Source of the DNA: Bacteroidetes bacterium UBA6161
GTDB taxonomy: Bacteria; Bacteroidota; Bacteroidia; NS11-12g; UBA955
Assembly (NCBI GenBank): GCA_002422315.1
Contig: DIUJ01000068.1
Span: forward strand, 30,882-94,881
Reading direction: 5' to 3'
Length of the DNA: 64,000 bases
A program made the position numbers and the translations under genes. Positions 1 to 43,437 of the stretch are shown here, piece by piece. Under the pieces are notes generated by a model. The model was not told the DNA's origin. It made no database searches and worked only from the letters and a program-made list of their open reading frames with translations. Each line of letters starts with the position of its first letter. Position 1 is the first letter of the stretch.

Positions 1-17
1 GCACTACAATAAGAAGT

Positions 18-359: not shown

Positions 360-447
360 AATAAATCGTTAATGAGTCATTAGTGAGTCATTAATTCATT
401 TTTTCGGCAACCCATAGTCTTGCAATCACAAAATAATTGAAAAACGT

Positions 448-756
448 ATGGAAATTATCACAATGGAAAGCAATGCCTACAAGCTCCTGATTCAGAAGCT
501 CGACGAGGTACATGCAGAACTTAAAAAGCTACAAGACCCTGCCAAGGAATTGTCTCGGGAATGGGTAGATGCCTATGATGTTATGAATATGCTGCATATA
601 AGCAGACGTACATTAAGCAAGTACCTGCAATCTGGAAAACTACAGTATTCCAAAATTCAGAACAAAAACTACTTTAGGTTGAAGGACATCGAGGAGTTTT
701 TGATGCATAACCACCGTTCACGTGCTCGTATTAATCAAAATCATCATGGGGCTTAA
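448..756 (+). CDS. helix-turn-helix DNA-binding protein, excisionase/MerR-like (mobile-element Xis-like)
   Basis: 102 aa. The central segment 'DVMNMLHISRRTLSKYLQSGKLQYSKI' is a classic HTH. Position upstream of a primase is typical of Bacteroidetes integrative/mobilizable elements. Confidence 0.55.
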   Translation: MEIITMESNAYKLLIQKLDEVHAELKKLQDPAKELSREWVDAYDVMNMLHISRRTLSKYLQSGKLQYSKIQNKNYFRLKDIEEFLMHNHRSRARINQNHHGA

Positions 757-2827
757 CAAAGAAGAAATATTGCATGCAACAGACCGAGGACTAAAGGTAT
801 TTACTTACTTTCTAAGGTCCAATTATCCTGGCATAAACAAGCCTTTCAAAAATCCTTTTTATGAGGATACCAAAGCTGCTTGCCATGTATATTTTGAAAA
901 AACCAGTAACCAGTATCGCTTTATAGATTTTGGAGACAGTTCCTACAACTGTGATTGCTTTGGTTTTGTGGCTTTGGTATTCAATCTGCAATGCAGCAAT
1001 GCTGAACATTTTTTGCAGGTTATGGAAATTATAGACCGTGAATTAGTGTTAGGTCTGGCAAACAACCACGATAAAATCAGAGAAATTACCAAGCAATTTC
1101 CGGAAGTAAAAGTGGCTTCTGAAATAGAGTCCTTAACTATTGCCGATATGAGAAACAACGTTTCTAAAAAATTCATACCTCCCATGTTTAAGGATTATTC
1201 TCAAACCGAAATTAATTTTTGGGGAATGTATGGCATAGATATGCAAACCCTAAAGAAATACAATGTGGTTTCTTTGCAGCGCTTTTATGGAACAAACAAG
1301 GATGGAAAAGAATACCAAATAGAAAGTGCAGTAGACGAGCCTATGTTTGGGTATCTTGGTAAACGCTTTTTAAAAGTGTATAGACCTCGCTCCAACAATC
1401 GCTTTTATTATTCCGGTGATTTGCACGAAGGCTATTGTTTTGGCTTGAAACAATTGCCATTAAGAGGCGATATTTTATTCATTACCGGAGGAGAAAAGGA
1501 TGTATTGAGTTTGGCTGCAAGGGGATTTAATGCTATTTGCTTTAACTCCGAAACCGTTACTATTCCTAAGAACCTGGTTAGGCGTTTGTCTTTTCGTTTC
1601 AAACATATTGTGCTGATGTACGACAAAGATGAAACAGGCTGCAAGGCAATGGAAAAACAGGTGAACCAACTCAAAGAGTTTGATGTAAAAATGCTGCTAT
1701 TGCCACTTAAAGGAACGCCTCAACAAAAGGATATTAGTGACTTTTTTAAAATAGGACATACTGCCCAGGATTTAATGAAATTATTTCGTGATTTATTGGA
1801 TGTACTGTATGAAGAAACCATGAGTTTGCTGCGAAGCTTTGAGGTGGACTATGACAAGGCACCGGCTGTACCCGAAGCAGTAATAGCTATAAACGAAGTG
1901 CCAATTGGATCTGCGGGTAACCTTATGGCAATTACAGGCCCCGAAGGCAGTGGCAAATCGAATTATTTGGGCGCTGTTTTGGCAGGAACCATGGTTGCGG
2001 AAGGAACAGAAGTAGATACTCTAGGAACAGAAATAGCTAGAAATACTACAGGCAAATCTGTGTTGTATTATGATACGGAACAATCCGAAGAGCAACTTTT
2101 TAAAAACTTACGTCAAATTGTAAGACGTTCGGGAGCATCGAGACCACCTTCCTGGTTCAAAACCTATGGTTTGGTGGGGATGGGAAGAAAAGACCGTTTG
2201 GTAAGCATTCTTCACTCCATGGATAGGTTTTATTATGAACATGGAGGCATTCACCTTGTAGTGATAGATGGTATAGCAGATTTGATAGATGGGGTAAACG
2301 ATGAAGAAAAGTCTGTAGCGCTTATAGACGAGTTGTTTCGGCTTGCCGGTATTTACAAAACGTGTATTTTGTGTGTATTACATTTAAGCCCAAGCGGCTA
2401 TAAGCTTAGGGGGCATTTGGGTTCAGAGATACAACGTAAGGCTGCCGGGATATTGTGTATAGAAAAGGAGGAGGACAAAACCCAATCCCTTGTGAAAGCT
2501 TTAAAAGTAAGAGACGGAAGTCCGTTGGATGTACCTCAAATAATAATGGCTTGGGACGATACACAAAAATTCCATGTATTTGTAGGCGAAAAAGACAAAG
2601 CTCGGCCACAAGAACGCAAGATTGAAGAGCTATCCGACATTGCACGTCATATATTTGAGCGAGAGGAAAGCCTAAACTACATGAAAATCATCTATGAGTT
2701 ACAAGAGCGACTTCATGTTAAAGAAAGGCAAGCCAAAAACTACCTTAAATTTATGCGTGACAACCACATTATCGAAGCTTTGCCAGGGGAAACCAATGTG
2801 TACAAACTGAAAATCCCACCCTTTTAA
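722..2827 (+). CDS. primase-helicase: Cys-cluster zinc-binding region + Toprim + C-terminal P-loop (RepA/DnaB-like) ATPase
   Basis: Cys cluster 'CHVYF...NCDCFGF'. Toprim-like 'ILFITGGEKDVLSLAARGFNAICFNSE'. Walker A 'ITGPEGSGKSNYLG' and Walker B 'HLVVIDGIADLIDG'. The true start is probably the internal Met (MGLNKEE, ~746). Confidence 0.65.
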   Translation: MLVLIKIIMGLNKEEILHATDRGLKVFTYFLRSNYPGINKPFKNPFYEDTKAACHVYFEKTSNQYRFIDFGDSSYNCDCFGFVALVFNLQCSNAEHFLQVMEIIDRELVLGLANNHDKIREITKQFPEVKVASEIESLTIADMRNNVSKKFIPPMFKDYSQTEINFWGMYGIDMQTLKKYNVVSLQRFYGTNKDGKEYQIESAVDEPMFGYLGKRFLKVYRPRSNNRFYYSGDLHEGYCFGLKQLPLRGDILFITGGEKDVLSLAARGFNAICFNSETVTIPKNLVRRLSFRFKHIVLMYDKDETGCKAMEKQVNQLKEFDVKMLLLPLKGTPQQKDISDFFKIGHTAQDLMKLFRDLLDVLYEETMSLLRSFEVDYDKAPAVPEAVIAINEVPIGSAGNLMAITGPEGSGKSNYLGAVLAGTMVAEGTEVDTLGTEIARNTTGKSVLYYDTEQSEEQLFKNLRQIVRRSGASRPPSWFKTYGLVGMGRKDRLVSILHSMDRFYYEHGGIHLVVIDGIADLIDGVNDEEKSVALIDELFRLAGIYKTCILCVLHLSPSGYKLRGHLGSEIQRKAAGILCIEKEEDKTQSLVKALKVRDGSPLDVPQIIMAWDDTQKFHVFVGEKDKARPQERKIEELSDIARHIFEREESLNYMKIIYELQERLHVKERQAKNYLKFMRDNHIIEALPGETNVYKLKIPPF

Positions 2828-3096
2828 TACAAATTTAGAATTTAGTTTTTCTAATACTGAATTTGGATTAACCCTGACACCCTGACGAACCTGCATAGCA
2901 TCTATCAGGTTGTAAGGGTCGTCAGCCCAAAGGGCAAAATAAGCATTAGCGTAATTTGGGTTTAATACGGTATTCGTATGGTTTTAAGGCAAAAGTCTTT
3001 AAACTGTACTACAAGCATCACCTATTTGTCGTAGAAGACCGATAATTTTAGGTGAAAATTGATTTGTTCTGATAAATTTGTCTTCACTTCGCACTT

Positions 3097-3127
3097 AAAA
3101 CCCTGACTTATGTCGGGGTTTTTTGTT
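3097..3127 (+). terminator. rho-independent terminator-like hairpin + T-run after the primase gene
   Basis: 'aaaaccctgac ttat gtcggggtttttt': GC stem followed by a T stretch. Confidence 0.45.
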
Positions 3128-3312
3128 TGCTATGCATTGATATTATCCACATTGACCCTATTTGTCGGAAAATTTTTTGCTTGAATGAGGTAAAGTTGTG
3201 AGATAAAATATATTTTTGAAAACGAAGTGTAAAACAAGTCCTTAGTTATTCACTATTAAAAGAAAACGAAAGTAGTTAAGGTGATTTAGCTAGTTGAATA
3301 GGAAAACAGAAA

Positions 3313-4878
3313 ATGAAACAGAAAAAAGAAGTTAAAGAAAAAGCAATTGAAGTAACCCTTTGGGAAGCTGCAAATAAATTGAGAGGAAGCGTAGAACCAG
3401 CCGAATACAAACACGTTGTATTGGGCCTGATTTTCTTAAAATTTGCAAGCGACAAATTTGAAGAACACCGATCCAAACTCATTGCCGAAGGCAAAGAAAA
3501 ATACATTGAAATGGCAGAGTTCTACAACATGAGCAATGTGTTTTTCTTAGAAGAAATATCCCGTTGGAGCTACATTGTAAAAAAGGCCCGTCAAAATGAT
3601 ATTGCTTTAATCATTGACACTGCACTTCACACAATTGAGAAAGACAATAAATCATTGAAAGGTGCATTGCCCGACAACTATTTTTCACGTTTGGGCTTAG
3701 ATAAAACCAAATTAGCTTCGTTGATTAGTGAAATTGATAGCATCAACACTTTAAAAGACAAAGAACAAGATTTGGTTGGACGTGTTTATGAGTATTTTTT
3801 GAAAAAGTTCGCAATTGCGGAAGGAAAAGGAAAAGGAGAATTTTATACCCCAAAAACGATTGTAAACCTCATTGCTGAAATGATTGAACCGTACAAGGGA
3901 ATCATTTATGACCCTGCTTGTGGTTCAGGTGGTATGTTTGTGCAGTCCATCAAGTTTATTGAAGCGCACCAAGGAAATACCAAAAACATTGCAATTTACG
4001 GACAAGAATACACTAAAACAACCTACAAACTGGCTAAGATGAACTTGGCCATTCGTGGCATATCTGCTAACCTTGGTGAAAAAGATGCCGATACTTTTGC
4101 AGACGACCAACACAAAGATTTAAAAGCCGATTACATCATGGCAAATCCTCCCTTTAATCAAAAAGATTGGAGGGGTGAAAATGAATTGATTGACGACCCA
4201 CGTTGGAGAGGTTATGATGTTCCGCCAAAAAGCAATGCGAATTATGGTTGGATTCTGAACATGGTTTCCAAACTTTCTGACAATGGTGTAGCAGGATTTA
4301 TATTGGCTAACGGTGCATTGAGTGGTGGTGGTGAAGAGTATAAAATTCGTAGAAAACTCATTGAGAATAATTTGGTAGAAGCCATTGTGATTATTCCCCG
4401 AAACACCTTTTATACCACAGATATAAGTGTTACACTTTGGATTCTGAACAAAAACAAAAAAGCAAGAACAGTTGAAATAAACGGTAAACAAAAAAACTAT
4501 CGCGACCGTGAAAAAGAAATCCTGTTTATGGATTTAAGGCGTTGGGGTACAGAATACGAAAAGCAATTCATTGAGCTTCTACCTGAAGACATTGAAAAAG
4601 TGGCTGACAATTACCACAACTGGCAACAAGTAGATTATAAAACAACCTACAAGGATGTACCAGAGTATTGCTACTCGGCTCATTTTAACCAAATACAAGA
4701 AAACGACTTTTCATTAGTGCCAAGTAAATACATTGAATTTGTTGACCGTGATAGCGGCATTGATTTTGATTCTGAAATGAAACGCATACAAAAAGATTTT
4801 AAAACCCTTTTGAAAGAGGAAAAAGAGTCACAAGAACAATTGATTAACGCTTTTAAAGTACTAGGCTATGAACTATAA
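3313..4878 (+). CDS. hsdM: Type I restriction-modification system M subunit (N6-adenine DNA methyltransferase)
   Basis: N-terminal HsdM_N-like region. 'DPACGSGGMF' SAM-binding motif and 'IMANPPFNQ' (NPPF, motif IV). Overlaps hsdS by 11 nt. Confidence 0.9.
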   Translation: MKQKKEVKEKAIEVTLWEAANKLRGSVEPAEYKHVVLGLIFLKFASDKFEEHRSKLIAEGKEKYIEMAEFYNMSNVFFLEEISRWSYIVKKARQNDIALIIDTALHTIEKDNKSLKGALPDNYFSRLGLDKTKLASLISEIDSINTLKDKEQDLVGRVYEYFLKKFAIAEGKGKGEFYTPKTIVNLIAEMIEPYKGIIYDPACGSGGMFVQSIKFIEAHQGNTKNIAIYGQEYTKTTYKLAKMNLAIRGISANLGEKDADTFADDQHKDLKADYIMANPPFNQKDWRGENELIDDPRWRGYDVPPKSNANYGWILNMVSKLSDNGVAGFILANGALSGGGEEYKIRRKLIENNLVEAIVIIPRNTFYTTDISVTLWILNKNKKARTVEINGKQKNYRDREKEILFMDLRRWGTEYEKQFIELLPEDIEKVADNYHNWQQVDYKTTYKDVPEYCYSAHFNQIQENDFSLVPSKYIEFVDRDSGIDFDSEMKRIQKDFKTLLKEEKESQEQLINAFKVLGYEL

Positions 4879-5989
4879 GCGTATAGGCGACTACATACAT
4901 TTAGTGGACAACCGAAATAAAGATTTAGCGGTTTCACTGCTAAGAGGTGTTTCAACAACAAAACAGTTAATTGAGTCTGTTGCGAATATGTCAGGAGTTA
5001 GTTTGCACAATTACAAGGTTGTTGGAAATCGGCAGTTTGTATATGTGTCTGACACATCAAGACGAGGAGATAAAATTGGTGTTGCACTGAATACTGGCGA
5101 ACCTTGCGTAGTTTCAAGTATTTACACAGTGTTTGAAACTGATGAAAATTATTTATTGCCTGAGTATTTGTTCATTTGGTTCAATCGTTCAGAATTTGAC
5201 CGATACACAAGATTTCATTCGTGGGGCAGTGCAAGAGAAACTTTTGATTGGGCTGATATGTGTGAAGTAAAGATTCCTATCCCAGCCATTGACGAACAAC
5301 GAAAATTTGTAGCCCTCTACAACGGTTTATTGACCAACCAAAAAGTGTATCAAAATAGCTTGGATGATTTGCAGTTGATTTGTGACACCTACATTGAAAA
5401 TCTAATAAAAATCGAAGAGCCGAAAACACTTGGAGATTATATTGAGCAATCGGATGAAAGGAATAATGATTTGAAAATTGATAACCTTATAGGAATAAGC
5501 GTGAATAAGGTTTTTATGGAAACCAAATCTAACAAAGATAGACTCGACTTGTCAAATTATAAAATTGTTCGTCCGAGAGAGTTAGGATATGTCTCGGTAA
5601 CCTCAAGAAATGGAGAGAAAATTTCAATAGCAATTTTAGATGGTGAAGCAGGTCTTGTTTCAAGTACTTATACAGTGTTTAGAGTTAAAGACACTTCATT
5701 TTTATTACCTGAATATTTGTTTTTGTTTTTTAAGAGAACTGAATTTGACCGTTACGCTAGATTTAACTCTTGGGGCAGTGCTAGAGAAACATTTGATTGG
5801 GTTGATATGTGTAATGTGAAATTACCCATTCCCGACATCAAAGTACAAGAAGCCATTGTTACCATTTACCATACCTTAGAAACTCGTAAACGGATCAATG
5901 AGCAATTAAAAAACACCATTAAACCACTTTGTCCTGTGTTGATGAGGGGTGTTGTGGGGAGTGTGAAACTTGAAACTGTAAATTCCTAA
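4868..5989 (+). CDS. hsdS: Type I restriction-modification system S (specificity) subunit
   Basis: Two target-recognition halves, each ending in a conserved repeat: 'FDRYTRFHSWGSARETFDWADMCEVKIPIP' and 'FDRYARFNSWGSARETFDWVDMCNVKLPIP'. Confidence 0.9.
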   Translation: MNYKRIGDYIHLVDNRNKDLAVSLLRGVSTTKQLIESVANMSGVSLHNYKVVGNRQFVYVSDTSRRGDKIGVALNTGEPCVVSSIYTVFETDENYLLPEYLFIWFNRSEFDRYTRFHSWGSARETFDWADMCEVKIPIPAIDEQRKFVALYNGLLTNQKVYQNSLDDLQLICDTYIENLIKIEEPKTLGDYIEQSDERNNDLKIDNLIGISVNKVFMETKSNKDRLDLSNYKIVRPRELGYVSVTSRNGEKISIAILDGEAGLVSSTYTVFRVKDTSFLLPEYLFLFFKRTEFDRYARFNSWGSARETFDWVDMCNVKLPIPDIKVQEAIVTIYHTLETRKRINEQLKNTIKPLCPVLMRGVVGSVKLETVNS

Positions 5990-8202
5990 TGATTACATCC
6001 ATAAACATAAAGAATGTAGCAACCTATGACCCAGTGAATGGGGTTGAAATAGATGGTTTAAAAAAAATAAACTTTATCTATGGGGCTAATGGATGTGGTA
6101 AAACAACTTTATCAAACTTTTTGCTGTATCCTGGTGATACGAAATTTGCTAATTGTGTTTTAAACTGGGAGAATCAAACTCCACTCAATACTTTAGTTTA
6201 CAACAAAGAGTTTAGAGAACAGAACTTTGGCAAAGGTAAATTGAATGGAGTATTTACACTTGGACAGGCTACAAAAGAGGAAATTAAGGTCATTGAAGAA
6301 AAAACAGATCAACTAAAAACGATAAAAGATGATGGGCAAAAAAAGCGTGAAACACTAAACGTTCAAAAAAAGAAAAGAGAGGATTTAGAAAAAGAATTTA
6401 CTGAAAGTTGTTGGAAGAAAATCTATAAAAAGTATGATCAAGAATTTAAGGAAGCCTTTGTTGGTTCAATGAGATCTGGAGAGTTATTCAAAAATAGGTT
6501 ACTTCAAGAATTTGAGAATAACTCTGCTACTCTAATAACTTTAGAAGAGCTAAGAGAAAAGGCGAAAACAATTTTTGGAGAAGTTCCACAAAATATATTA
6601 TCCATAAGCGAAATTAATTATGACAGAATAATTGAAATCGAAGGTAATACAATTTGGGCAAAAATTATTGTTGGGAAAGCTGATGTAGATATTGCCAAAT
6701 TAATTCAAAAATTGAATATAACCGATTGGGTCAACCAAGGAAGAACTTATATACAAGAAGAGGTTGAAACTTGCCCATTTTGCCAACAAAAAACAATTAC
6801 AGATGATTTCAAAAATCAATTAGAAAGCTTTTTTGATGAAACTTATTTAACAGATATAAAATCACTTAAAGAATTAAAACAAGAATACAATTCATTGACT
6901 CAAAACATTATCAATGAGCTAAACGAAATTGAAACAAACCAAAAGAACTTTACAGGCTCTAAATTGAATATAGATAAGTTTTCAGCTTATCTAAAAACAT
7001 TAATAAGTCAGATTACGACCAATAGTGAATTTTTAAACAACAAATTAAAAGAACCAAGCAGAAGTATTGAATTAATATCACTCAACGAACAACTTGACTT
7101 GATAAATGATTTAATAAAAATTGCCAATGCAGAAATCAAAAAACACAACGATATAGTACTCAATTTCAATACTGAAAAAAGTACATTGATACAATCAATA
7201 TGGAAATTCATTATAGAAGAATTTAGAAACGAAATTACAAAGTATAACACTGATAAAAACGGGCTAGACTCTGGAATTTTGGCATTACAAACTCAATTAA
7301 CTACTAAGCTCACTGAACACGGTACGTTAAAAGCTGAAATCCAAAATTTAAGCAAAAACGTTACAAGTATTCAGCCAACTGTGGATGAAATCAATAGACT
7401 TTTGAAATCCTATGGTTTTCTAAACTTTGAAATTGTACCCACAGCGGAAAATGGATTTTATCAAATTCAACGTGAAGATGGTGAAATTGCTGAAGACACT
7501 CTAAGTGAAGGTGAAATTACGTTTATTACTTTTTTGTATTATTTGCAACGTGCTAAAGGAGGTGAAACAGAAGAATCGGTTAATGAAGAAAGAATCTTAG
7601 TTATTGATGACCCCATTTCTAGTTTAGATAGTAATGTGTTGTTTGTAGTAAGCACATTGATCAAGGAAATAATCAAAACTGTAAAATCAGAGACGGGAAA
7701 TATCAAACAGATTATTCTTCTTACCCACAATGTTTATTTTCATAAAGAAGTTTCTTACGAAGGATTGAACAGAAAAGGTGAGAAATCTCAATTTTGGATT
7801 TTACGTAAGAATAACAAAGTTTCTACAGTCCATTATTATGCTGATAAAAATCCAATTCAATCATCTTATGAACTACTCTGGCGAGAAATCAAGGAATGGG
7901 AAAACAATTCAGGTATAACCATTCAAAATACATTAAGAAGAATACTTGAAAACTATTTCAGCATTTTGGGAAGTAAACGAGATGATGTTTTAATCAATAA
8001 ATTTTCAAATCAAGAAGAAAGAGAAATATGCAGGTCTTTATTGAGTTGGGCAAACGAAGGTTCTCATACGTTACCAGATGATTTGTTTATTGAAGCTCCA
8101 GACGGTACGATAACTAAGTATTTAGATGTGTTTAAGAATATTTTTAATCACACAGAAAATATTGGTCATTATAATATGATGATGGAATTAGAAAGCGATT
8201 GA
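5989..8202 (+). CDS. Rad50/SMC-like ABC ATPase with CxxC zinc hook (AAA_13-type), RloC/PrrC-like putative anticodon nuclease
   Basis: Walker A 'GANGCGKTT'. 'CPFCQQ' sits ahead of a long coiled-coil insert. Signature-like 'LSEGE', Walker B/D-loop 'ILVIDDPISSLD' and H-loop 'LLTHN'. C-terminal 'R-x3-E ... H' (TLRRILEN...EGSHTL) resembles the PrrC ACNase triad. Start overlaps the hsdS stop (TAATG). Confidence 0.55.
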   Translation: MITSINIKNVATYDPVNGVEIDGLKKINFIYGANGCGKTTLSNFLLYPGDTKFANCVLNWENQTPLNTLVYNKEFREQNFGKGKLNGVFTLGQATKEEIKVIEEKTDQLKTIKDDGQKKRETLNVQKKKREDLEKEFTESCWKKIYKKYDQEFKEAFVGSMRSGELFKNRLLQEFENNSATLITLEELREKAKTIFGEVPQNILSISEINYDRIIEIEGNTIWAKIIVGKADVDIAKLIQKLNITDWVNQGRTYIQEEVETCPFCQQKTITDDFKNQLESFFDETYLTDIKSLKELKQEYNSLTQNIINELNEIETNQKNFTGSKLNIDKFSAYLKTLISQITTNSEFLNNKLKEPSRSIELISLNEQLDLINDLIKIANAEIKKHNDIVLNFNTEKSTLIQSIWKFIIEEFRNEITKYNTDKNGLDSGILALQTQLTTKLTEHGTLKAEIQNLSKNVTSIQPTVDEINRLLKSYGFLNFEIVPTAENGFYQIQREDGEIAEDTLSEGEITFITFLYYLQRAKGGETEESVNEERILVIDDPISSLDSNVLFVVSTLIKEIIKTVKSETGNIKQIILLTHNVYFHKEVSYEGLNRKGEKSQFWILRKNNKVSTVHYYADKNPIQSSYELLWREIKEWENNSGITIQNTLRRILENYFSILGSKRDDVLINKFSNQEEREICRSLLSWANEGSHTLPDDLFIEAPDGTITKYLDVFKNIFNHTENIGHYNMMMELESD

Positions 8203-8239
8203 GCCCAACACAATATTGAATAATTAGAATAAAAGGATT

Positions 8240-9109
8240 ATGAATAACAAAGACATGATATTTAACATTTACTACGTGAACTTCCCAAAAGTTTACGAAA
8301 TAAAAATGATGCTCAACAACATGATTCTTTCTGGACAACAAATAGAGAAAGGTAAAAGTGTTGAGGGAGAAGCATACTTAAAAACAAAATTGGGCTTCAA
8401 TATCATGGACATTTTTAAACTTGGTGATGCGGAAGCAGGTGGAAACATTAAGGGTGCTGGTTCTAAAAAAGTTTTAGAAACCTTTGAAATAAAAACAACT
8501 AAATCAGTAATTCTAAACGAAATTGTTGAAAAGAGTAATAAGATTTCGGATTTAAAAAATATCAAAGAAGGAGAATTGATTCAAATTAATAATGTAAATC
8601 TATCGCTTGAAAATGAAGCGGAACTCAGAACAGTAAAATTGTTTACAAGCGGTTCTTTTAAAGGTCTTTCATTACCAGATACAAATGGTCTTGATATTAA
8701 CAACCTTTTCAATTCCATGTTTAAAGATTATGCTTATAAAATGAAAGGTTCATTAGACGGTTCAGAGGATGATTTGCTTGTGAAAATACCTTTCACTTTT
8801 GAGAACGAGTTTGAAAGTTCTTATAGTGTTGACGACCTCTTTATTGGTAAAGTCTCAATAATAGGTTTATACAAGGGAAAAATAAAAATTGACCAACTCC
8901 GTAATTCATTTGAATTTTATAAAGATTTGGGCGAATTAACTCAACTTCAAAATACTGGTGTAACAAGTAAAAATGAAGAAATTCAAGACAGCCAGTATAA
9001 AAAGGAAGATGTAAAGGATAATTTTTTTGCCAGTTCAAAATTTAGCGATAAAGAATTCCATTATATAGATCTTTTAGCCATTGTTCAAAATATTAGCATT
9101 CCTGAATAA
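8240..9109 (+). CDS. hypothetical protein (unknown function, inside the hsd operon)
   Basis: Intact 289-aa ORF, 38 nt after the RloC-like gene and 9 nt before the AAA+ gene. No recognisable motif. Confidence 0.5.
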   Translation: MNNKDMIFNIYYVNFPKVYEIKMMLNNMILSGQQIEKGKSVEGEAYLKTKLGFNIMDIFKLGDAEAGGNIKGAGSKKVLETFEIKTTKSVILNEIVEKSNKISDLKNIKEGELIQINNVNLSLENEAELRTVKLFTSGSFKGLSLPDTNGLDINNLFNSMFKDYAYKMKGSLDGSEDDLLVKIPFTFENEFESSYSVDDLFIGKVSIIGLYKGKIKIDQLRNSFEFYKDLGELTQLQNTGVTSKNEEIQDSQYKKEDVKDNFFASSKFSDKEFHYIDLLAIVQNISIPE

Positions 9110-9118
9110 TATAAAATT

Positions 9119-10318
9119 ATGGAAAAGGAGTTAACATATTTTGAGCGAATAGATTTCAACGAGTTCAGAGAGCTAAAAGAATCTGAAGGTTTTCTTATTG
9201 AAAGCATTTCAGATTATATAAAAGACAAAAATTTAATCGAACAAATTGATCCGCTCAATGTAATAATTGATATAACCGCATTATCTGGTTATTCAGCATC
9301 AATGCAAGCCTTTTCTGAAGAATTATTAATACCCTTTGACGATTCTATATTATTTATTGCTGATATTAAACACGAAGAAACCTTCAACTACGAACTAAGA
9401 TATTGCTTTACAAAAATTGATTACTGGAAATCTAAAAAAGACAAATCAGACGATAAAGTTGAGAATACAAATAAATCAAAAAGTAAGCACAAGAAAATAA
9501 CTGACCTATCAGAGGATGAGTTAGGGGTCTTCTTTCAAGAATTTAGAAAAAGTCTTTATGGACATGAAAAATTCAAAGATGATTTTTTTGATTTAACCAA
9601 GACTTTTAGGGTTTTCAATGGAATTAGGGAGCATAAAATATTATCACTTTTTTTACTTGGGGAATCAGGCGTTGGAAAAACGGAAGTTGCTAACTCTATT
9701 TACAAATGCTTGGGCGGAATGAAGAAACTTGCTAAAGTTAATTTCGGGAATTACAGTAGTGAGTTTTCATTAAGTTCACTTATAGGAAGTGCGCGAGGGT
9801 ATATCGGAAGTGATGATGGAGAAATATTTATCAGAGTTAGAGATACTGATATAGGAGTAATATTAATTGATGAATTTGAGAAGTCAAATGCAACTCTTTT
9901 TAACTACTTTTTAGATGTATTGGAAAGCGGTAAACTAGTCAGCTCTTTAGCTGAAGAAATTGACTTAGATGGCTTCATAATAGTTTTCACTTCAAATATT
10001 AGCAAAGAGGACTTTTCAAATAAGATTTCTCCAGAGCTAAGATCAAGGTTCGACTACAAATGTCAATTTACCTTACTCTATAATGAGGACAAGAAAAAAT
10101 ATGTTGAATTTAGGGTGAATAGTATTGTTAGAAAGGTAAATGAGAAATATAAAATACAATTAGAAGAGAACTTACATGAACGTTTTTTAACTCAAATCAA
10201 TGTTTCTGATTACAATAACATGAGAGATTTAAATAAAAAAATCAAAACAGTATTTGTTGATTATGTTACAAGCGAGAAATTAGCATTGCATGAACTCGAA
10301 AAAGAAATAAGCGAATAA
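9119..10318 (+). CDS. ClpA/ClpB D2-like (AAA_2-type) AAA+ ATPase with unknown ~170-aa N-terminal domain
   Basis: Walker A 'LLGESGVGKTEVANS'. 'VILIDEFEKSNATLFNYFLDVLESGKL' parallels ClpB D2 '[27 protein letters not shown]', and 'IIVFTSN' parallels the ClpB sensor region. Stop overlaps the hsdR start (TAATG). Confidence 0.6.
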   Translation: MEKELTYFERIDFNEFRELKESEGFLIESISDYIKDKNLIEQIDPLNVIIDITALSGYSASMQAFSEELLIPFDDSILFIADIKHEETFNYELRYCFTKIDYWKSKKDKSDDKVENTNKSKSKHKKITDLSEDELGVFFQEFRKSLYGHEKFKDDFFDLTKTFRVFNGIREHKILSLFLLGESGVGKTEVANSIYKCLGGMKKLAKVNFGNYSSEFSLSSLIGSARGYIGSDDGEIFIRVRDTDIGVILIDEFEKSNATLFNYFLDVLESGKLVSSLAEEIDLDGFIIVFTSNISKEDFSNKISPELRSRFDYKCQFTLLYNEDKKKYVEFRVNSIVRKVNEKYKIQLEENLHERFLTQINVSDYNNMRDLNKKIKTVFVDYVTSEKLALHELEKEISE

Positions 10319-13300
10319 TGAAATTCACAGAAGAAAAATTAGAAAAGGCATTTGCTGAGTTACTGGGACAAGAAGGATTTCCGCACTACACAGGCATTAC
10401 AATTTCTCGTAATCCAGATGAAGTATTGATTGAAGAAGATTTACAAAACTTCTTATTGTCGCAATATGCCCATCAAGGTATCACGATCAATGAAACCAAA
10501 TCGATTATTCTTCAACTCAAATCCCTTTCTGCTACTGATTTATACGAAAGCAACAAAACCTTTCTTAACATGCTTTCTGACGGTTTTATTTTGAAAAGAG
10601 AAGACCGCAACCAAAAAGACATTTACATACAATTAATTGATTATACAGGATTAAACAAACACCGTCAACCTGACGAAGAACAATTAATTTCAGTAGTAGC
10701 AGAAGGCAAAGGGGAATACGGAAAAGACAATAACATTTACAAATTTGTTAATCAACTAGAAATTGTTGGAACGGAAAAACGTATTCCTGATGGCATTGTG
10801 TACATCAATGGTTTGCCTTTGGTGGTGTTTGAGTTTAAAAGTGCCATACGTGAAGAAGCTGCCATTTTTGATGCATTCAAACAATTAACGGTTCGTTACC
10901 GCAGAGATATTCCCGAACTGTTTAAATACAACGCTTTTTGTGTGATAAGTGATGGCGTAAACAACAAAGCAGGTTCTTTTTTTGCTCCCTATGAGTTTTT
11001 CTACGCTTGGCGTAGAGTAGCAGGTTTGGCAAAAGATGTGGACGGTATAGACAGTATGTTTACCCTTATTCAAGGTATGTTTGATAAAAACCGTTTACGT
11101 GATATTATCCGAAACTTCATTTACATACCCGACAGCTCAAAGAAAAACGAAAAAATTGTGTGTCGCTATCCACAATATTATGCAGCAAGAGCCTTGTATG
11201 AGAATATAAAACATACACAAAAACCTGAAGGAGACGGTAAAGGAGGAACTTACTTTGGTGCCACAGGTTGCGGAAAAAGTTTTACCATGCTTTACCTCAC
11301 ACGTTTGTTAATGAAAAGCGAATACTTTGAAAGCCCAACCATAGTTTTAATAACAGATAGAACAGACCTTGACGACCAACTTTCGGGGCAATTCACCAAT
11401 GCCAAAAACTTTATTGGAGATAGTACAATCATAAGTGTAGAAAGTAGAGCGCATTTAAGAGAATTGGTACAAGGCAGACAAAGTGGCGGGGTTTTCCTTA
11501 CAACGATTCATAAGTTTACAGAAGATACCGAATTACTTACCGAAAGAACCAACGTAATTTGTATTTCAGATGAGGCACACAGAAGCCAAACCAACCTTGA
11601 CCAAAAAGTAAAAGTCACCGAAAAAGGTGTTACCAAATCTTATGGTTTTGCCAAATATTTACACGATTCTTTACCCAACGCAACCTTTGTTGGTTTCACA
11701 GGAACACCAATAGACGCAACCCTTGATGTATTTGGTAAAGTGGTAGATGCTTATACTATGACAGAGTCCGTAAAAGATGAAATTACTGTTCGGATAGTTT
11801 ATGAAGGTCGTGCAGCAAAAGTGGCGTTAAAAAACAGTGAATTAGAGAAAATCGAAAAATATTACGAAGAAGCAGCAGAATTAGGAGCAAACGATTATCA
11901 AATAGACAAAAGTAAACTCGAAACAGCCAATATGTACACGATTTTGGGTGACCCTGACCGTTTACGTGCCGTAGCAGAAGATTTTGTGAACCATTATGAA
12001 AAGCGAATTTCAGAAGGAGCAACTGTAAAAGGAAAAGCACTATTTGTAAGCAGTAGTCGTGAAATCGCTTATGAATTGTACAAAAATATAATAGCATTGA
12101 GACCTGAATGGGCTGAAATTAGAGAAGCAGAAGAAGGTATTGAATTAACCGATAAAGATAAAAGGGAATTAAAACCGATTGAGCGTGTAAAAATGGTAAT
12201 GACCAGAGGAAAAGACGACCCAAAAGAACTTTGGGATATGTTAGGCACTTCTGACGACCGAAAAGAACTCGACCGCCAATTTAAAAATCCGAAATCGAAT
12301 TTCAAAATAGCCATTGTAGTAGATATGTGGCTCACTGGTTTTGATGTACCTTTCTTAGATAGCATATACATTGATAAACCGATACAACAACACAATTTAA
12401 TTCAAACCATTTCAAGAGTAAACCGAAAATTTGAAGGCAAAAACAAAGGTTTGGTAGTGGATTATATCGGCATCAAAAAACAAATGAATTTGGCACTTGC
12501 CAAATACAACAAAGGTGACGAAGACAACTTTGAAGACATTACACAATCTTTAGTAGTAGTTAAGGACCATTTGGATTTATTAGCCAAATTGATGCACACA
12601 TTTGACAATACAAAGTATTTCAAAGGAAGTACCATAGAACAATTAAACACCTTAAACCTTAGTGCTGAATTTGTGCAAAAAACCAAAGATTCAGAAACCC
12701 GTTTTATGGGCTTAGTAAAGCGACTAAAAGCCGCTTATGATATTTGTGCAGGAAGTGAAAAACTAACCCAAGCAGAAAGAGACTACACACATTTCTATTT
12801 GGCTATTCGTTCCATTATTTTCAAATTAACCAAAGGTAATGCACCCGACACGGCACAAATGAACGCAAGAGTTCGGGAAATGATAAAAGAAGCCTTAGAA
12901 AGTGATGGTGTGGAAGAAATATTCAAACTTGGAGACGAAAACGAAACCGAACAAGATATTTTTGATGAAGATTATTTAGCCAAAATCAACAAAATCAAAT
13001 TACCCAACACAAAAATCAAATTACTTCAACAGCTATTGGCGAAAGTAATTGGAGAAATCAAAAAGGTAAACAAAGTAAAAGGAATTGATTTTTCAAAAAA
13101 GATGCAAGCCTTAGTTGAACGCTACAACCAGCGAGATGAGAATGATATACTCAGAAGCGAAGTATATGAGGAAATGGCAGATGCCTTAACTGAATTAATC
13201 TGGGAGGTTCACAAAGAATTTTCAGCAGGAGACGCATTAGGAATTGACTTTGAAGAAAAGGCCTTTTATGACATTCTAAAAGAACTTTGTATCAAATACG

Positions 13301-13530
13301 ACTTCAATTACCCAGACGACAAAATGATTGAATTGGCAAAAGCCGTGAAAGACTTAGTAGATGGTCAAGCCAAATTCCCTGATTGGAACAAACGTGACGA
13401 CATCAAATCAGCTTTGAAAGTTGGACTCATTCTCTTGCTTGACGAATTTGGCTATCCACCTGTAGAGAGAGACGAAGTATATGTGGAGATTTTTGAACAA
13501 GCAGAAAATTTTAAAAAGAATAGGGGGTAG
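10318..13530 (+). CDS. hsdR: Type I restriction enzyme R subunit (DEAD/DEAH helicase-nuclease)
   Basis: N-terminal 'IPDGIVYINGLPLVVFEFKS' (nuclease/HsdR_N). Motif I 'GATGCGKS', DEAH 'ISDEAHRSQ' and motif VI 'QTISRVNR'. 1070 aa. Confidence 0.9.
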   Translation: MKFTEEKLEKAFAELLGQEGFPHYTGITISRNPDEVLIEEDLQNFLLSQYAHQGITINETKSIILQLKSLSATDLYESNKTFLNMLSDGFILKREDRNQKDIYIQLIDYTGLNKHRQPDEEQLISVVAEGKGEYGKDNNIYKFVNQLEIVGTEKRIPDGIVYINGLPLVVFEFKSAIREEAAIFDAFKQLTVRYRRDIPELFKYNAFCVISDGVNNKAGSFFAPYEFFYAWRRVAGLAKDVDGIDSMFTLIQGMFDKNRLRDIIRNFIYIPDSSKKNEKIVCRYPQYYAARALYENIKHTQKPEGDGKGGTYFGATGCGKSFTMLYLTRLLMKSEYFESPTIVLITDRTDLDDQLSGQFTNAKNFIGDSTIISVESRAHLRELVQGRQSGGVFLTTIHKFTEDTELLTERTNVICISDEAHRSQTNLDQKVKVTEKGVTKSYGFAKYLHDSLPNATFVGFTGTPIDATLDVFGKVVDAYTMTESVKDEITVRIVYEGRAAKVALKNSELEKIEKYYEEAAELGANDYQIDKSKLETANMYTILGDPDRLRAVAEDFVNHYEKRISEGATVKGKALFVSSSREIAYELYKNIIALRPEWAEIREAEEGIELTDKDKRELKPIERVKMVMTRGKDDPKELWDMLGTSDDRKELDRQFKNPKSNFKIAIVVDMWLTGFDVPFLDSIYIDKPIQQHNLIQTISRVNRKFEGKNKGLVVDYIGIKKQMNLALAKYNKGDEDNFEDITQSLVVVKDHLDLLAKLMHTFDNTKYFKGSTIEQLNTLNLSAEFVQKTKDSETRFMGLVKRLKAAYDICAGSEKLTQAERDYTHFYLAIRSIIFKLTKGNAPDTAQMNARVREMIKEALESDGVEEIFKLGDENETEQDIFDEDYLAKINKIKLPNTKIKLLQQLLAKVIGEIKKVNKVKGIDFSKKMQALVERYNQRDENDILRSEVYEEMADALTELIWEVHKEFSAGDALGIDFEEKAFYDILKELCIKYDFNYPDDKMIELAKAVKDLVDGQAKFPDWNKRDDIKSALKVGLILLLDEFGYPPVERDEVYVEIFEQAENFKKNRG

Positions 13531-13531
13531 T

Positions 13532-13897
13532 ATGGAAGAAATAGAAAAGAGTGAAAGCAATAAGTTAATCATTATAGGAAATGGTTTTGACTTGTCGTTA
13601 AGAATTAAAACAAGTTATAAAGACTTTTTACTTTGGTTGTTGCAGAAGTATATAAAGAAGACTTATGAAAAGAAGCATGCAACTCATCCAAAATATAAGA
13701 TAATTAATCAATTGTCTAAAGAAGAAGAAAGATTAAAAGTGAACCTCCTTTCAGAAAACGGAGCTAAAACAGTATTAGTGCAGATGGGAAACCACAATGA
13801 AATGACAACACTGCCTCAATCAATATTAGGTAAGACAGATGTTCCATTTTATGGGAATAGTCAAATGTTGTTACAGAAATCGGTGTTGGGAGAGTAA
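13532..13897 (+). CDS. AbiH-like abortive-infection protein, N-terminal fragment (possibly truncated)
   Basis: Starts 'MEEIEKSESNKLIIIGNGFDLSLRIKTSYKDFL', matching the conserved N-terminus of the AbiH family (LIIGNGFDLxHGLxTxYxDF). Only ~122 aa against ~300+ for full AbiH. The track ORF start (13481) overlaps hsdR, so the ATG at 13532 is preferred. Confidence 0.4.
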   Translation: MEEIEKSESNKLIIIGNGFDLSLRIKTSYKDFLLWLLQKYIKKTYEKKHATHPKYKIINQLSKEEERLKVNLLSENGAKTVLVQMGNHNEMTTLPQSILGKTDVPFYGNSQMLLQKSVLGE

Positions 13898-13908
13898 AAA
13901 TTTGAAGT

Positions 13909-16344
13909 ATGGCAAAGAAAAAACATTTAAAATTATTAAGTGATAAACAACTTGAAGAAGTTGCCAAAATAGAGTTTAAATATGGGTTTGGTGGTAATGA
14001 AGACGATGAAGAAGAAAATACACAACCTAATTATTATAGACAAGCATCCAATCTTCGTGTAAGTATCGAAAACTTTTCAATTGAACAAGAGCAAAAATAT
14101 GCTCGGAAGGATAGAAGTCTTGAAATACCTGCGGATGTTGATTATATTCAAATTAACTTTGTGTCACAATTCGTAATTAGTAAATACTTTAATGAATATT
14201 ACAAGAAATTTGGACTTGAAGCAATAAATTTTTCCAATTTCGGGAAAACGGGTCTATTTGCAATTATCGAAAGAGATTTATTTCAGACATATCTTAATGA
14301 AATAAATAACTTTATTCAATTTGGGCTCAACCTTAATCCAGAGAGCAAATACGATAATTATGTTACTTATGTCAATGGTTTCAAGCTGTTAACAGCTAAA
14401 GACATTATACGCTTTAAAGTAGATGAAATCGGCAAAGTAGTTTGTCTCTCATTAGTTGAATTGCCCTTAGACTTAAAGTTACAATCACTCTTAATTGATT
14501 CATTAATTGCTTTTCTTGAAAGTAAAAATATATCATATTATTTTGACAAAACTGTAAACAGGATTGAACTATTAGATATACCCTTTGAGCAAGTACAGTT
14601 GATTGCGGAGAATTTCGACATCATCCAAAATGCCACCTGCTCTTTATCAACCATAGTAAGGCCATCTGAATTCAACTTTGTTAAAAGAGAATACGGTTTC
14701 AATATTTCAAATGCAGATGAAAATTTGCCAGTGATCGGAATTATTGATACAGGTATTAGTATGGATACACCCCTTAAATCCATTACAATTCAAGATGCCT
14801 CATTTAGTTTGGAAGGCAATCCTTTAATAGATGTTTCAGGCTATAAAAGAGAAGGTCACGGCACAGCAGTAGCGGCATTGGCTGCTTTAGGAAGGCTTAA
14901 TCATTTAAATAAGTTTCAAGGTGAAATAAGAGCAGATGCAAAACTTCTATCAATAAAATTGTTCGAAAGTGGCAATGGCTATTTATCCGAAACCCAAGTG
15001 GTAAAAATGCTGTATGATGCGAAAAGTAAGTACCCTCATATAAAGTTGTTCGTCTTAACTACTTGTTATGATAAGTTCAAAGCTAAAAACGAACCCTTTA
15101 GTTCTTACACTTATGAGTTAGACAAATTTGCTCATTCAACAGATAGTTTAATATTTATTTGCACTGCAAACAATAGAAATGCTATAAATGAGAATACTGA
15201 TTATGACTTGGCTTATTTCAATTCAGTACACACCAATCTTTCAACGCCAGCGGATAGTCTTAATAACGTTACTGTTGGTGCAGCCGCAGAGAATTTAAAC
15301 GGTGATACTTTTTATGGTATATCAAGTGGCAGAGAATACCCAACCCTATACTCACGAAAAGGGCATATAGACTTGGCAGCTGTTTTTCCTCGCAATAAGT
15401 CCAATAAAAATTATTTCAAACCAGATGTAATTGATTGCGGTGGCGATTTAGGTTTTTACAATCCTTCAGCTATTGATTACATTGATAATTCTGCGATGGC
15501 TGTTTTATCAGCACGCCCGGAATTGGGCTACATTTTAGAAACTGGCACAAGCTTGTCAGCTCCTTTAACCGCAAATTTAGCTGCAAAAATTTTAAAAGAA
15601 TATCCTCATATAAATGCTCAAACAGTTAAAGCACTTATTATAAATGGTGCATCTTTAAATAATATTCAATTTCCAAAACAGGTTAGTCATTTACTTAATG
15701 TTACAGCCGGTAACGGTTTTGTTGATGTTGAAGAAAGTTTGTTTTCCAATGAAAATAGAGCCACATTGATTTTGGAAGATGAGATTTCCAATACTGATCT
15801 AAAGATTTACCCAATAAACTTCCCTAAGTATTTAGTTGAACATGATTTAGGTCGTAAGAAAGGATTGGTAAAAATTACTGCAACATTGTGTTTTAGTTTC
15901 GAACCAATATTAAATAACCAACTATCATACAATCCTATTCATATGGCATTTAGTTTTTTCAAGAACCATAGTGCTGATGAAATTAATGCGAAAAATGATG
16001 ATTTTAATTCGAAACTAAGGTCTTCACTATCTTGGTCACAAAACGGTAGAAACGTTTCCAAACCAATTCCGTTTTCTAATTCTCAGAAAATCAATTTTAC
16101 TATTGATTTGAACCATTTAGTTACAGAAAATCAAGTGTTGAAATTAGCCGTTCATTGCAAGGTTTCAACTCAAATTGTTGGTGGTTTACCAGCAGGTTAT
16201 CCAAAGCAATTTCCATTTTCAATGGCTATAACTATAGAAGAAAATACTAAAAAGAAATCAGGCAAACTTTATGATGAACTGCGTGCAATAAACAACTTAG
16301 AAGTAATTAGTGATATTGAACTGGACAGTTCTATTGATGTATAA
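13909..16344 (+). CDS. subtilisin-like (S8) serine peptidase domain protein with unknown N- and C-terminal domains
   Basis: Catalytic triad in subtilase order: D 'IGIIDTGIS', H 'HGTAVAALAAL', S 'GTSLSAPLTA'. 811 aa. No signal peptide is apparent, so it is probably cytoplasmic. Confidence 0.7.
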   Translation: MAKKKHLKLLSDKQLEEVAKIEFKYGFGGNEDDEEENTQPNYYRQASNLRVSIENFSIEQEQKYARKDRSLEIPADVDYIQINFVSQFVISKYFNEYYKKFGLEAINFSNFGKTGLFAIIERDLFQTYLNEINNFIQFGLNLNPESKYDNYVTYVNGFKLLTAKDIIRFKVDEIGKVVCLSLVELPLDLKLQSLLIDSLIAFLESKNISYYFDKTVNRIELLDIPFEQVQLIAENFDIIQNATCSLSTIVRPSEFNFVKREYGFNISNADENLPVIGIIDTGISMDTPLKSITIQDASFSLEGNPLIDVSGYKREGHGTAVAALAALGRLNHLNKFQGEIRADAKLLSIKLFESGNGYLSETQVVKMLYDAKSKYPHIKLFVLTTCYDKFKAKNEPFSSYTYELDKFAHSTDSLIFICTANNRNAINENTDYDLAYFNSVHTNLSTPADSLNNVTVGAAAENLNGDTFYGISSGREYPTLYSRKGHIDLAAVFPRNKSNKNYFKPDVIDCGGDLGFYNPSAIDYIDNSAMAVLSARPELGYILETGTSLSAPLTANLAAKILKEYPHINAQTVKALIINGASLNNIQFPKQVSHLLNVTAGNGFVDVEESLFSNENRATLILEDEISNTDLKIYPINFPKYLVEHDLGRKKGLVKITATLCFSFEPILNNQLSYNPIHMAFSFFKNHSADEINAKNDDFNSKLRSSLSWSQNGRNVSKPIPFSNSQKINFTIDLNHLVTENQVLKLAVHCKVSTQIVGGLPAGYPKQFPFSMAITIEENTKKKSGKLYDELRAINNLEVISDIELDSSIDV

Positions 16345-16347
16345 ATC

Positions 16348-17373
16348 TTACTTATTGAGTGCTTGTTTTTCAGCTTCAACAAGTTCCTTCCATATTTGAG
16401 TATCAATTTTGCCACTCAATTTTTTTTCAGGTTCTTTTGCTGCAAATAAGCTTCTTTTAATGGCAGTAATCAATGTTTTTTGAATGCTGTAGTAGGAAAG
16501 ACCCAGGCATTCTTTTATTATTTTGTTCGCAATAATTTTTTTGTCAAATGAGAATACACCATTCTTCAGGGTTAATGCAATTAACTCTTGTATCTCCTTT
16601 TCATTCGGCAATTTAAATTCAATGATATTATCAAATCTTCTAATCAAGGCTTCATCAAGCATATCTTTTTGATTTGTAGCAGCTATAACGATACTACTTT
16701 GCGGTAGGTAATCAAAAAGTTGAAGAATTGTGTTTACAACTCGTTTCATCTCTCCGTGATCTTGGCTATAATCTCTTATTTTTCCAAGACTATCAAATTC
16801 ATCTAAAAATATGATACAATCTTCTATCGCAGCTTTCTTGAAGATTTTAGATAGGTTTTTGCTTGTTTCACCTAATTTCGAAGAAACAATAGCCCCGAGA
16901 TTAATAACAACCATCATTTTCTTTAACTCTCCTGCAATAACATAAGAAGCCAGTGTTTTTCCGCAACCGGAAGGTCCGTACATTAAAACTTTATTGGCTA
17001 CAGGCAACTCAAACCTTCTAAGGATTTCAATCTTTTGGTGTTCTTCAATGAAAAATTTTAGCTCGTTTTTTACACTTCCCTCTGCAATAATATTTTCAAG
17101 TGTATAGTCCGATGTTACTTTCTCAAGAATTAATTCAGCAATTTCTCTGTCATCCAACTTCTGGTAATAATTGTCAGAGCCAACTTTGGTAAGCGTGTTT
17201 GTGCCTTGCTGTTTTATTGCATCTTTCAGTATAGATTGGAGCTGAATTGCAAAATTTAGTTTTTTAGTTTTCTTTGAATGTTCAATAAGTTCATTGAGTA
17301 CAGACAATAGCCTTTCCTGGTCATTTTCAAGACCGAATTTGGCTATATCTTTTATGTATTCAAACTGACTCAT
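16348..17373 (-). CDS. classical AAA ATPase (SRH-containing, FtsH/CDC48-clade-like)
   Basis: Walker A 'YGPSGCGKT', Walker B 'IIFLDEFDSL', and SRH with Arg fingers 'IAATNQKDMLDEALIRRFD'. Convergent with the S8 gene and 3 bp from it. Confidence 0.75.
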   Translation of the reverse strand: MSQFEYIKDIAKFGLENDQERLLSVLNELIEHSKKTKKLNFAIQLQSILKDAIKQQGTNTLTKVGSDNYYQKLDDREIAELILEKVTSDYTLENIIAEGSVKNELKFFIEEHQKIEILRRFELPVANKVLMYGPSGCGKTLASYVIAGELKKMMVVINLGAIVSSKLGETSKNLSKIFKKAAIEDCIIFLDEFDSLGKIRDYSQDHGEMKRVVNTILQLFDYLPQSSIVIAATNQKDMLDEALIRRFDNIIEFKLPNEKEIQELIALTLKNGVFSFDKKIIANKIIKECLGLSYYSIQKTLITAIKRSLFAAKEPEKKLSGKIDTQIWKELVEAEKQALNK

Positions 17374-34592: not shown

Positions 34593-34601
34593 TGTAAAAA
34601 A

Positions 34602-39699: not shown

Positions 39700-39700
39700 A

Positions 39701-41485: not shown

Positions 41486-41496
41486 GTCTTATTTTT

Positions 41497-42438: not shown

Positions 42439-42468
42439 TTTTTATTTTTATTTAAGTTTTAGGGTTGT

Positions 42469-43433: not shown

Positions 43434-43437
43434 GTTC

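Follow-up and report, generated by a model that had tools for sequence, protein, structure and literature searches.

Two catalogued candidate defense modules between hsdS and hsdR of a type I restriction-modification operon in Bacteroidetes bacterium UBA6161

Organization of the operon

We analyzed a 64,000-nucleotide (nt) stretch of DNA from Bacteroidetes bacterium UBA6161 (GenBank assembly GCA_002422315.1, contig DIUJ01000068.1, positions 30,882 to 94,881; hereafter, the window), in which a type I restriction-modification (R-M) operon carries three further genes between hsdS and hsdR. These genes make up two modules, one for an RloC-type anticodon nuclease and one for a pair of proteins of the PDC-M37 family (Table 1). 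Judged from its sequence, the hsdM-hsdS...hsdR operon is intact and its cargo is of defense type. HsdM matched the PADLOC model MTase_I (E=5e-148), and HsdS, which has two target-recognition domains, matched Specificity_I (E=2e-131); the conserved regions of hsdS form an internal direct repeat (D1) of 169 nt at 5152-5320 and 5701-5869. In HsdR, Pfam domains HSDR_N (3-224), SWI2_SNF2 (286-514), ResIII, T1R_D3-like (612-716), and T1RH-like_C (732-1067) were found, the score against NCBIfam TIGR00348 was 444 bits (cutoff 284), and the nearest relative of solved structure was EcoR124I HsdR (E=4e-25).

Table 1. Features of the hsd operon and its leader, in window positions
Feature	Positions	Strand	Description
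Terminator-like hairpin	3097-3122	+	11-bp stem, 5 GC pairs, T-run; ends the upstream unit (mobile-element primase gene)
Candidate Bacteroidota -7 box TAttTTTG	3211-3218	+	~95 nt upstream of hsdM; putative function
hsdM	3313-4878	+	521 amino acids (aa), type I methyltransferase subunit; Pfam N6_Mtase E=2e-100, HsdM_N E=2e-23
hsdS	4868-5989	+	373-aa specificity subunit; two stretches of Pfam Methylase_S
Cargo module 1 (ORF3)	5989-8202	+	737-aa RloC-type anticodon nuclease, PADLOC PDC-S06
Cargo module 2, gene A	8240-9109	+	289-aa PDC-M37A; predicted OB-fold-like core
Cargo module 2, gene B (ORF5)	9119-10318	+	399-aa PDC-M37B, ClpA-D2/ClpB-NBD2-type AAA+
hsdR	10318-13530	+	1070 aa, full-length restriction/translocase subunit; PADLOC REase_I 1262 bits
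First ~120 nt of hsdR	10318-10437	+	Segment duplicated as internal stubs in related operons

The original prediction, made by a model from the letters of this DNA, had described six co-directional genes joined by overlapping or nearly overlapping stop and start codons. Coordinates, strands, and junctions were all confirmed, with one gap corrected from 38 to 37 nt. Read from the sequence, hsdM and hsdS overlap by 11 nt, TAATG joins both hsdS to the first cargo open reading frame (ORF3) and the last one (ORF5) to hsdR, and the gaps inside the cargo are 37 nt (737-aa to 289-aa ORF) and 9 nt (289-aa to 399-aa ORF). The GC fraction is 0.30 in each of the three cargo genes versus 0.36 in hsdM, hsdS, and hsdR, so that the composition shift falls exactly on the cargo boundaries.

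The cargo had also been proposed to be co-transcribed with the restriction genes. The tight packing agrees with this proposal, as do the signals on the + strand: no terminator-like hairpin was found between the cargo genes or at the hsdS/cargo and cargo/hsdR junctions, and no TAnnTTTG motif inside the cargo (5989-10318). The hairpin listed in Table 1 is the only strong + strand terminator-like site across 2800-17600, and it putatively marks the left edge of the hsd transcription unit. Two intergenic TAnnTTTG matches lie upstream of hsdM, the candidate -7 box and a second, at 3073, which precedes the hairpin. Transcription of all six genes is probably from the hsdM promoter. A σ70 promoter scan, which returned 66 sites versus 57.8 expected, was uninformative for Bacteroidota, and the TAnnTTTG motif was used instead. 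An Rfam scan of window positions 1-20000 matched no family.

An RloC-type protein in the first module

The 737-aa protein matched PADLOC candidate PDC-S06 nearly end to end (E=3e-274) and Pfam AAA_13 (E=1e-183); its homologs carry the JGI label "wobble nucleotide-excising tRNase." No sequence match among solved structures (PDB) and no NCBIfam model were found for it. In an alignment that took in one relative at 23% identity, the ABC-ATPase motifs were invariant, comprising Walker A (G32..K38), LSEGE (505-509), the DDP of Walker B (540-542), the D-loop SLD (545-547), and the H-loop TH (579-580). An insert of ~360 residues (~90-450), situated between Walker A and the signature, bears CPFC at residues 262-265, about midway along it; C262 and C265 were invariant even in the 23%-identical relative, and the insert is predicted to be a coiled-coil zinc hook. 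In the C-terminal domain, R650/R651, E654, and H693 were nearly invariant within the lineage and are lost in an 864-aa PDC-S06 subtype. In our reading of the motif, these residues may be the Arg/Glu/His nuclease triad shared with PrrC.

RloC of Geobacillus kaustophilus and Acinetobacter baylyi (Davidov and Kaufmann 2008, Klaiman et al. 2014) likewise combines an ABC-ATPase head with a coiled-coil insert, on which a CxxC zinc hook sits, and with an anticodon-nuclease domain at the C-terminus that has conserved Arg/Glu/His residues. The window gene differs in being embedded in an hsd operon, a rare situation for rloC, which is seldom linked to R-M genes (Klaiman et al. 2014). PrrC, encoded in the Escherichia coli prr locus with the type IC system EcoprrI, is also an anticodon nuclease whose gene lies between hsdS and hsdR. 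Homology to it covers the C-terminal half of the window protein, in which the PADLOC PrrC model matched residues 462-725 (E=8e-15). That model has 372 positions, and PrrC, a short protein with an ABC-type N-domain, lacks the coiled-coil/zinc-hook insert. Because the window protein has the CxxC-bearing insert that is absent from PrrC, its sequence sorts it with RloC and outside the definition of PrrC.

This distinction bears on how the cargo would be controlled. The original prediction had seen in the locus a layered backup defense on the model of PrrC, in which the Hsd complex would silence the cargo and phage anti-restriction proteins would release the RloC-like nuclease, the M37A-M37B pair (M37AB), or both as a backup abortive response. 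PrrC works with GTP and dTTP, and its R-M partner keeps it silent (Klaiman et al. 2014); both the PrrC precedent and "RM guardian" systems are established (Payne et al. 2024; a 2025 review). The M-S-cargo-R gene order and the position between hsdS and hsdR match the prr locus, as does the homology of the C-terminal half, and in two related loci (L169 and L170) rloC alone occupies the slot, giving hsdM-hsdS-rloC-hsdR with overlapping codons. Against such control stands the insert itself, which is the internal switch of RloC. RloC excises the wobble nucleotide of tRNA and is activated through this switch by linear DNA or double-strand breaks together with ATP hydrolysis; in A. baylyi, deletions of hsdR, hsdM, and hsdS neither silenced nor activated it (Klaiman et al. 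2014). The 2025 review draws the same contrast between PrrC and RloC.

A Dodola-like pair in the second module

The 289-aa protein had been described as unknown. This holds for Pfam, and likewise no NCBIfam model or solved-structure sequence match was found; in PADLOC, however, it matched PDC-M37A (E=7e-107), and the 399-aa protein matched PDC-M37B (E=2e-147), both nearly end to end. M37B begins with a confidently predicted (beta-alpha)5 domain (residues 1-105) and matches AAA_2 (E=2e-20), with intact Walker A (GESGVGKT) and Walker B (ILIDEFE) motifs. The AAA_13 and AAA_2 matches thus uphold the earlier assignment of ORF3 as RloC-like and ORF5 as ClpB-D2-like. The predicted fold of M37A resembles, among other OB folds, the anticodon-binding OB domains of Asn, Asp, and Lys tRNA synthetases.

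We compared the pair with Dodola, which comprises DolA (DUF6414) and DolB (ClpB-like) (Millman et al. 2022, as cited in PMC11514479). The two share a two-gene A-then-B layout and similar sizes, and the M37B match took in almost all of the DolB profile (E=4e-28; for relatives, 1e-25 to 1e-31). They differ in the A subunit, as the window M37A matched neither DolA nor DUF6414. Weak near-full-length matches came from two M37A relatives, one of Bacillota (L051; DUF6414, E=0.0034) and one on Listeria pLIS4 (DolA, E=2e-5), but the transitive link failed, with no DolA or DUF6414 match among ten distant members of the M37A family. The link to Dodola is good for the B subunit and only suggestive for the A subunit, and on these profile matches PDC-M37 is best treated as a divergent relative or sister family of Dodola. 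In a survey of Bacillus cereus genomes, the PADLOC calls PDC-M37 and Dodola were duplicate calls on one locus. A literature search found no mechanistic account of Dodola.

Four variants of the M37A family (P0508, P0498, P0483, and P0409; 405-450 aa) have three or four N-terminal transmembrane helices, which the window protein lacks, and in P0361 an unrelated 460-aa N-terminal region is fused to the M37A domain. The M37AB pair also occurs on Bacillales plasmids; no M37A homolog was found in phage genomes.

The junction of hsdS and hsdR is a variable cargo slot

Metagenomes were scanned with the HsdR N-terminus, which gave 80 loci with 80-93% identity to the window; both hsdS and hsdR were visible in 44 of them. 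All 44 of these orthologous operons carry genes between hsdS and hsdR (684-8354 bp, median 3153 bp, one to nine genes), so the arrangement in the window is not chance. The cargo genes are co-oriented in 129 of 135 cases, and 208 cargo proteins fell into 68 clusters. Common occupants are recognizable as defense genes and comprise RhuM/PDC-S05, AbiEi/AbiEii, SLFN-AlbA2/HATPase_c_4, TIR/ThsB-like proteins with SLOG, AriA-like ABC ATPases, and a second PDC-S06 subtype. In 29 of 40 loci, hsdR overlaps with the final cargo gene or directly adjoins it. Similarity to the window at the nucleotide level falls from 71-83% inside hsdR to background immediately upstream, and homology breaks exactly at the cargo boundaries. 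In the ortholog comparison that the original prediction had proposed, asking whether the insert is present, absent, or swapped, cargo was always present and exchanged among the 68 clusters. We conclude that the hsdS-hsdR junction in this hsd lineage is a variable cargo slot.

Since the slot accepts at least 68 unrelated protein clusters, among them self-contained toxin-antitoxin pairs, the position of the cargo would reflect a recombination hotspot rather than specific protein-protein control. This is a further argument against silencing of the cargo by the Hsd complex.

Small HTH_3-type genes stand directly upstream of hsdM in three related loci (L175, 6135-6341; L174, 2563-2853; L169, 4382-4663), and resemble regulators of the RptR type known from R-M islands; the window hsdM leader (2828-3312) holds no convincing ORF and no HTH_3-type gene. 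In the two loci in which rloC alone fills the slot, "Antirestrict" (PF03230) lies upstream and GmrSD downstream, so that anti-restriction and restriction genes lie on one stretch.

The two modules occur together and apart

The three inserted genes had been taken as one cargo, a view that the distribution of their relatives did not sustain: each of the two modules is also found apart from the other, beside different partners, and away from hsd operons. Besides its solitary occurrences in the slot, the RloC-type gene is found there with other cargo (L140) and beside AbiEi/AbiEii with no hsd genes nearby (L163-L168). Conversely, L174, of the same hsd family, has M37A at 95% identity together with M37B, with a TIR-SLOG-ThsB cassette upstream and RhuM/Fic-like genes downstream, and in L154 and L176 hsdS-M37A-M37B is followed by different genes. 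L175 carries all six genes of the operon at 87.6% identity, set in another flank, and a metagenome contig from ENA has the same layout as the window.

In 79 reference-genome loci (Bacteroidota, Bacillota, and other phyla), the adjacency of M37A and M37B was essentially invariant, and only four of these loci lie inside an hsd operon of the window's family. The flanks were read by Pfam scans, as single-sequence and iterated hidden Markov model searches had found only HsdS and HsdR of the same family. About one-third of the upstream neighbors are R-M genes of several types (Eco57I/N6_Mtase methylases, Eco47II, BsuBI/PstI, AlwI, HsdS), with M37AB directly downstream, which lends some support to control by an R-M partner. 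AAA_13 was the upstream neighbor in only 1 of 66 genome loci scanned. Downstream neighbors include integrases, RhuM, Schlafen-type helicases, reverse transcriptases, and Fic.

That the same RloC and M37AB lineages occur without hsd genes nearby adds to the case against obligatory silencing by the Hsd complex, and we consider a PrrC-like arrangement unlikely. The same data bear on whether the three genes could form one integrated system, with the RloC-type protein as effector and the OB-fold protein and AAA+ ATPase as sensor or regulator, or the reverse. The trio is kept as a block in the window's lineage (L001-L003 and L175) and once outside hsd operons (L007, described below), all three genes have the same GC fraction, and the fold of M37A is like those of tRNA-synthetase anticodon-binding domains, among other OB folds; these points favor one system. 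Yet each module is found with other companions or by itself in the loci named above, AAA_13 almost never precedes M37AB, PADLOC separates a single-gene from a two-gene candidate, and the intergenic spacer is poorly conserved. We regard a single three-gene system as distinctly unlikely.

Duplicated hsdR 5' ends at cassette boundaries

With a profile of the first 120 nt of hsdR, 20 of 92 sequences proved to hold extra + strand copies of this 5' end, 21 in all. Nearly all of these stubs begin at the hsdR ATG, and they are 48-119 nt long. Most lie within a few nt of the stop codon of the preceding module, and each is followed by another module, most often AbiEi/AbiEii. The stub-bearing loci are L087-L155 (20 loci), L163-L168, and L174. 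Assembly artifacts were considered and rejected, because identity between a stub and the hsdR of its own locus is mostly 72-90% and not 100%, and because the stubs recur in independent assemblies, including an NCBI metagenome-assembled genome.

Three loci form a natural before-and-after series. In L145, c14 is joined to hsdR by TAATG. L090 retains this junction and continues 59 nt into hsdR, after which come a RhuM cassette and a complete hsdR; 60 nt of L145 matched twice in L090. L110 is like L090, with a 119-nt stub and nine inserted genes. Homology between the window and L174 spans from the M37A ATG to 28 nt into hsdR; in L174 this homology ends in a 29-aa stub ORF, which further cassettes follow. 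Some Saprospiraceae loci without nearby hsd genes have RloC-AbiEi-AbiEii and then a 64-nt stub whose product is 95% identical to the HsdR N-terminus.

On the basis of these sequences, we interpret the stubs as scars of cassette insertion that duplicates the first ~30-120 nt of hsdR. No description of hsdR scars turned up in a targeted literature search; in their survey of embedded genes, Payne et al. 2024 had left out pseudogenes and also, in the Hma set, system genes present in duplicate. A broader reading, to which we give an even chance, is that the hsdS-hsdR junction is an integrase-free cassette-capture platform, where cassettes are added on the hsdR-proximal side, a dead stub is left behind, and an intact hsdR is regenerated. 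Under this reading the window M37B/hsdR junction would be the unscarred state of one such array. A stub and the real hsdR 5' end form direct repeats, and these could allow excision, spread by homologous recombination, and exit from hsd operons with a stub attached.

An analogy can be drawn with integron arrays and with tRNA-gene integration that regenerates its target: in relatives of this operon, cassettes in one orientation accumulate at one site beside a conserved gene end, and each insertion leaves a short direct target repeat and regenerates an intact gene. The hsd relatives differ in having no integrase or attC-like structure nearby and in that the repeat is the coding 5' end of hsdR, ~30-120 nt and variable in length. 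Because stub lengths vary, homologous or illegitimate rather than site-specific recombination is suggested.

In one locus (L103, 7853-7966), a stub stands directly after hsdS and before an SLFN/HATPase_c_4 cassette. This placement implies an ancestral cargo-free adjacency of hsdS and hsdR, yet none of the 44 operons is cargo-free today.

Proposed nature and origin of the cargo

The arrangement had been put forward as unfamiliar among described systems. All three genes, however, match PADLOC candidates (PDC-S06, PDC-M37A, and PDC-M37B) that were themselves derived from embedded genes. Payne, Hughes, Fineran and Jackson 2024 (bioRxiv 10.1101/2024.01.29.577857) defined PDC-S06 and PDC-M37 by "guilt-by-embedding," among 145 candidate systems drawn from genes lying inside operons of BREX, DISARM, and type I R-M systems; 96.7% of the embedded genes were co-oriented, and the PrrC backup rationale was already discussed there. 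The window proteins resemble these candidates in their near end-to-end matches and in co-oriented embedding in a defense operon, and differ in that PADLOC lists them as separate single-gene and two-gene candidates. Both the embedding and the two families are thus already catalogued, and the window is another instance; among the searches made, both modules stacked in one hsd operon were found only in the window's own lineage. Two other cases, both of validated systems, are similar in layout. TgvAB of Vibrio cholerae VPI-2 (PMC11411939) is a multi-gene defense cargo co-oriented inside an hsd operon, and DarTG2 of the enteropathogenic E. coli RptR island (PMC12255303) is co-oriented defense cargo between hsdS and hsdR; both differ from the window in cargo family and host phylum. 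The embedded V. cholerae genes did not depend on restriction by HsdR for their action in that study.

Taken together, these data make it likely, in our view, that the cargo consists of two autonomous defense modules in a lineage-wide slot, which share transcription and transfer with the R-M genes and entered as cassettes at the hsdR end. The R-M operon would sit on or beside a Bacteroidota mobile element, and its slot would hold the two modules head to tail. By analogy with characterized RloC, the Rad50-like ABC-ATPase and zinc hook of the RloC-type protein would sense DNA ends or double-strand breaks and switch on the C-terminal tRNase, which would disable tRNAs and stop translation. More tentatively, the OB-fold-like M37A may bind nucleic acid or a phage protein, and M37B, as a hexameric Clp-D2-type AAA+ motor, may remodel or unfold a target. 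Through the common hsdM promoter the genes would be expressed and transferred together, and would not necessarily be under physical control of the Hsd complex. Recombination within the initial ~30-120 nt of hsdR would let cassettes in and restore an intact hsdR; the scars of this process are seen in relatives only.

Several points weigh against this interpretation. Co-transcription and defense activity of the cargo are both inferred from sequence. No hsdR stub was found inside the window's own cargo, whose putative route of entry is read from the relatives, and the cargo flanks hold no inverted or direct repeats. The authors of the RloC work left R-M control during infection possible (Klaiman et al. 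2014). The predicted model of M37A is of moderate confidence (mean pLDDT 66), and its OB-fold matches are generic. Finally, Sphingobacterium corticibacterium has an RloC-M37A-M37B trio without hsd genes (L007, 7725-12413), with a longer M37B (518 aa) and a spacer of 38 nt between rloC and M37A (37 nt in the window), and its nucleotide homology to the window is continuous across the rloC/M37A junction. Given this continuity, the trio has been passed on as a unit on at least one occasion, and its genes may therefore cooperate functionally.

We also considered that the insert might comprise unrelated genes, housekeeping or decaying, that play no part in defense. In the literature we found no experimental validation of PDC-S06 or PDC-M37, and eroded defense-gene fragments lie directly downstream of the operon. 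All three ORFs are nevertheless full length with intact catalytic motifs and are strongly conserved across hundreds of clusters, tRNase activity has been demonstrated for the RloC family (Klaiman et al. 2014), and the neighbors in other loci are overwhelmingly defense or mobile-element genes, so that this explanation is very improbable.

The window thus offers a clean, intact natural case of two catalogued, unvalidated candidates (PDC-S06/RloC-type and PDC-M37/Dodola-like) stacked in a type I R-M operon. The value of the arrangement itself is modest, and it is a convenient construct for examining R-M control of RloC, defense by PDC-M37, and synergy from embedding. The wider value lies in one hsd lineage in which every operon examined has swapped cargo and in which precise hsdR 5'-end duplications occur as scars; together these point to a concrete, testable mechanism by which defense genes become embedded in other defense systems. 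We note that the scars in relatives are the most interesting by-product of the analysis.

Genes flanking the operon

Upstream of the operon (window 1-2827) lie genes for RteC, an HTH_17 (excisionase-like) protein, and a Toprim/AAA_25 primase-helicase-like protein, which suggests an island at the edge of a Bacteroidota integrative mobilizable or conjugative element. Directly downstream, a 121-aa ORF (13533-13897, +) starts 2 nt after the hsdR stop codon and is a chimera of an AbiH N-terminus and a segment like the BrxL C-terminus, with matches to positions 1-43 of Pfam AbiH and 628-677 of the 680 positions of PADLOC BrxL; it is probably an eroded or recombined remnant of defense genes. Beyond it, genes for an IetS-like S8 protease (13909-16344, +) and an IetA-like AAA+ ATPase (16348-17373, -) converge with 3 nt between them. 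Their scores fall well short of the NCBIfam cutoffs (106 versus 900 bits and 200 versus 510 bits, respectively), and the pair is a divergent Ietis-like one in unusual orientation. With mobile-element genes on one side and the AbiH/BrxL fragment and IetS/IetA-like pair on the other, the locus lies in a defense island beside mobile-element genes.

The downstream flank also encodes proteins with type IX secretion system (T9SS) sorting domains; these and the upstream genes mark the genome as one of Bacteroidota. Farther away, a long co-directional run of genes (33087-50149, -), including a 1301-aa ORF (34602-38507), looks like a phage-tail-like or prophage structural cluster.

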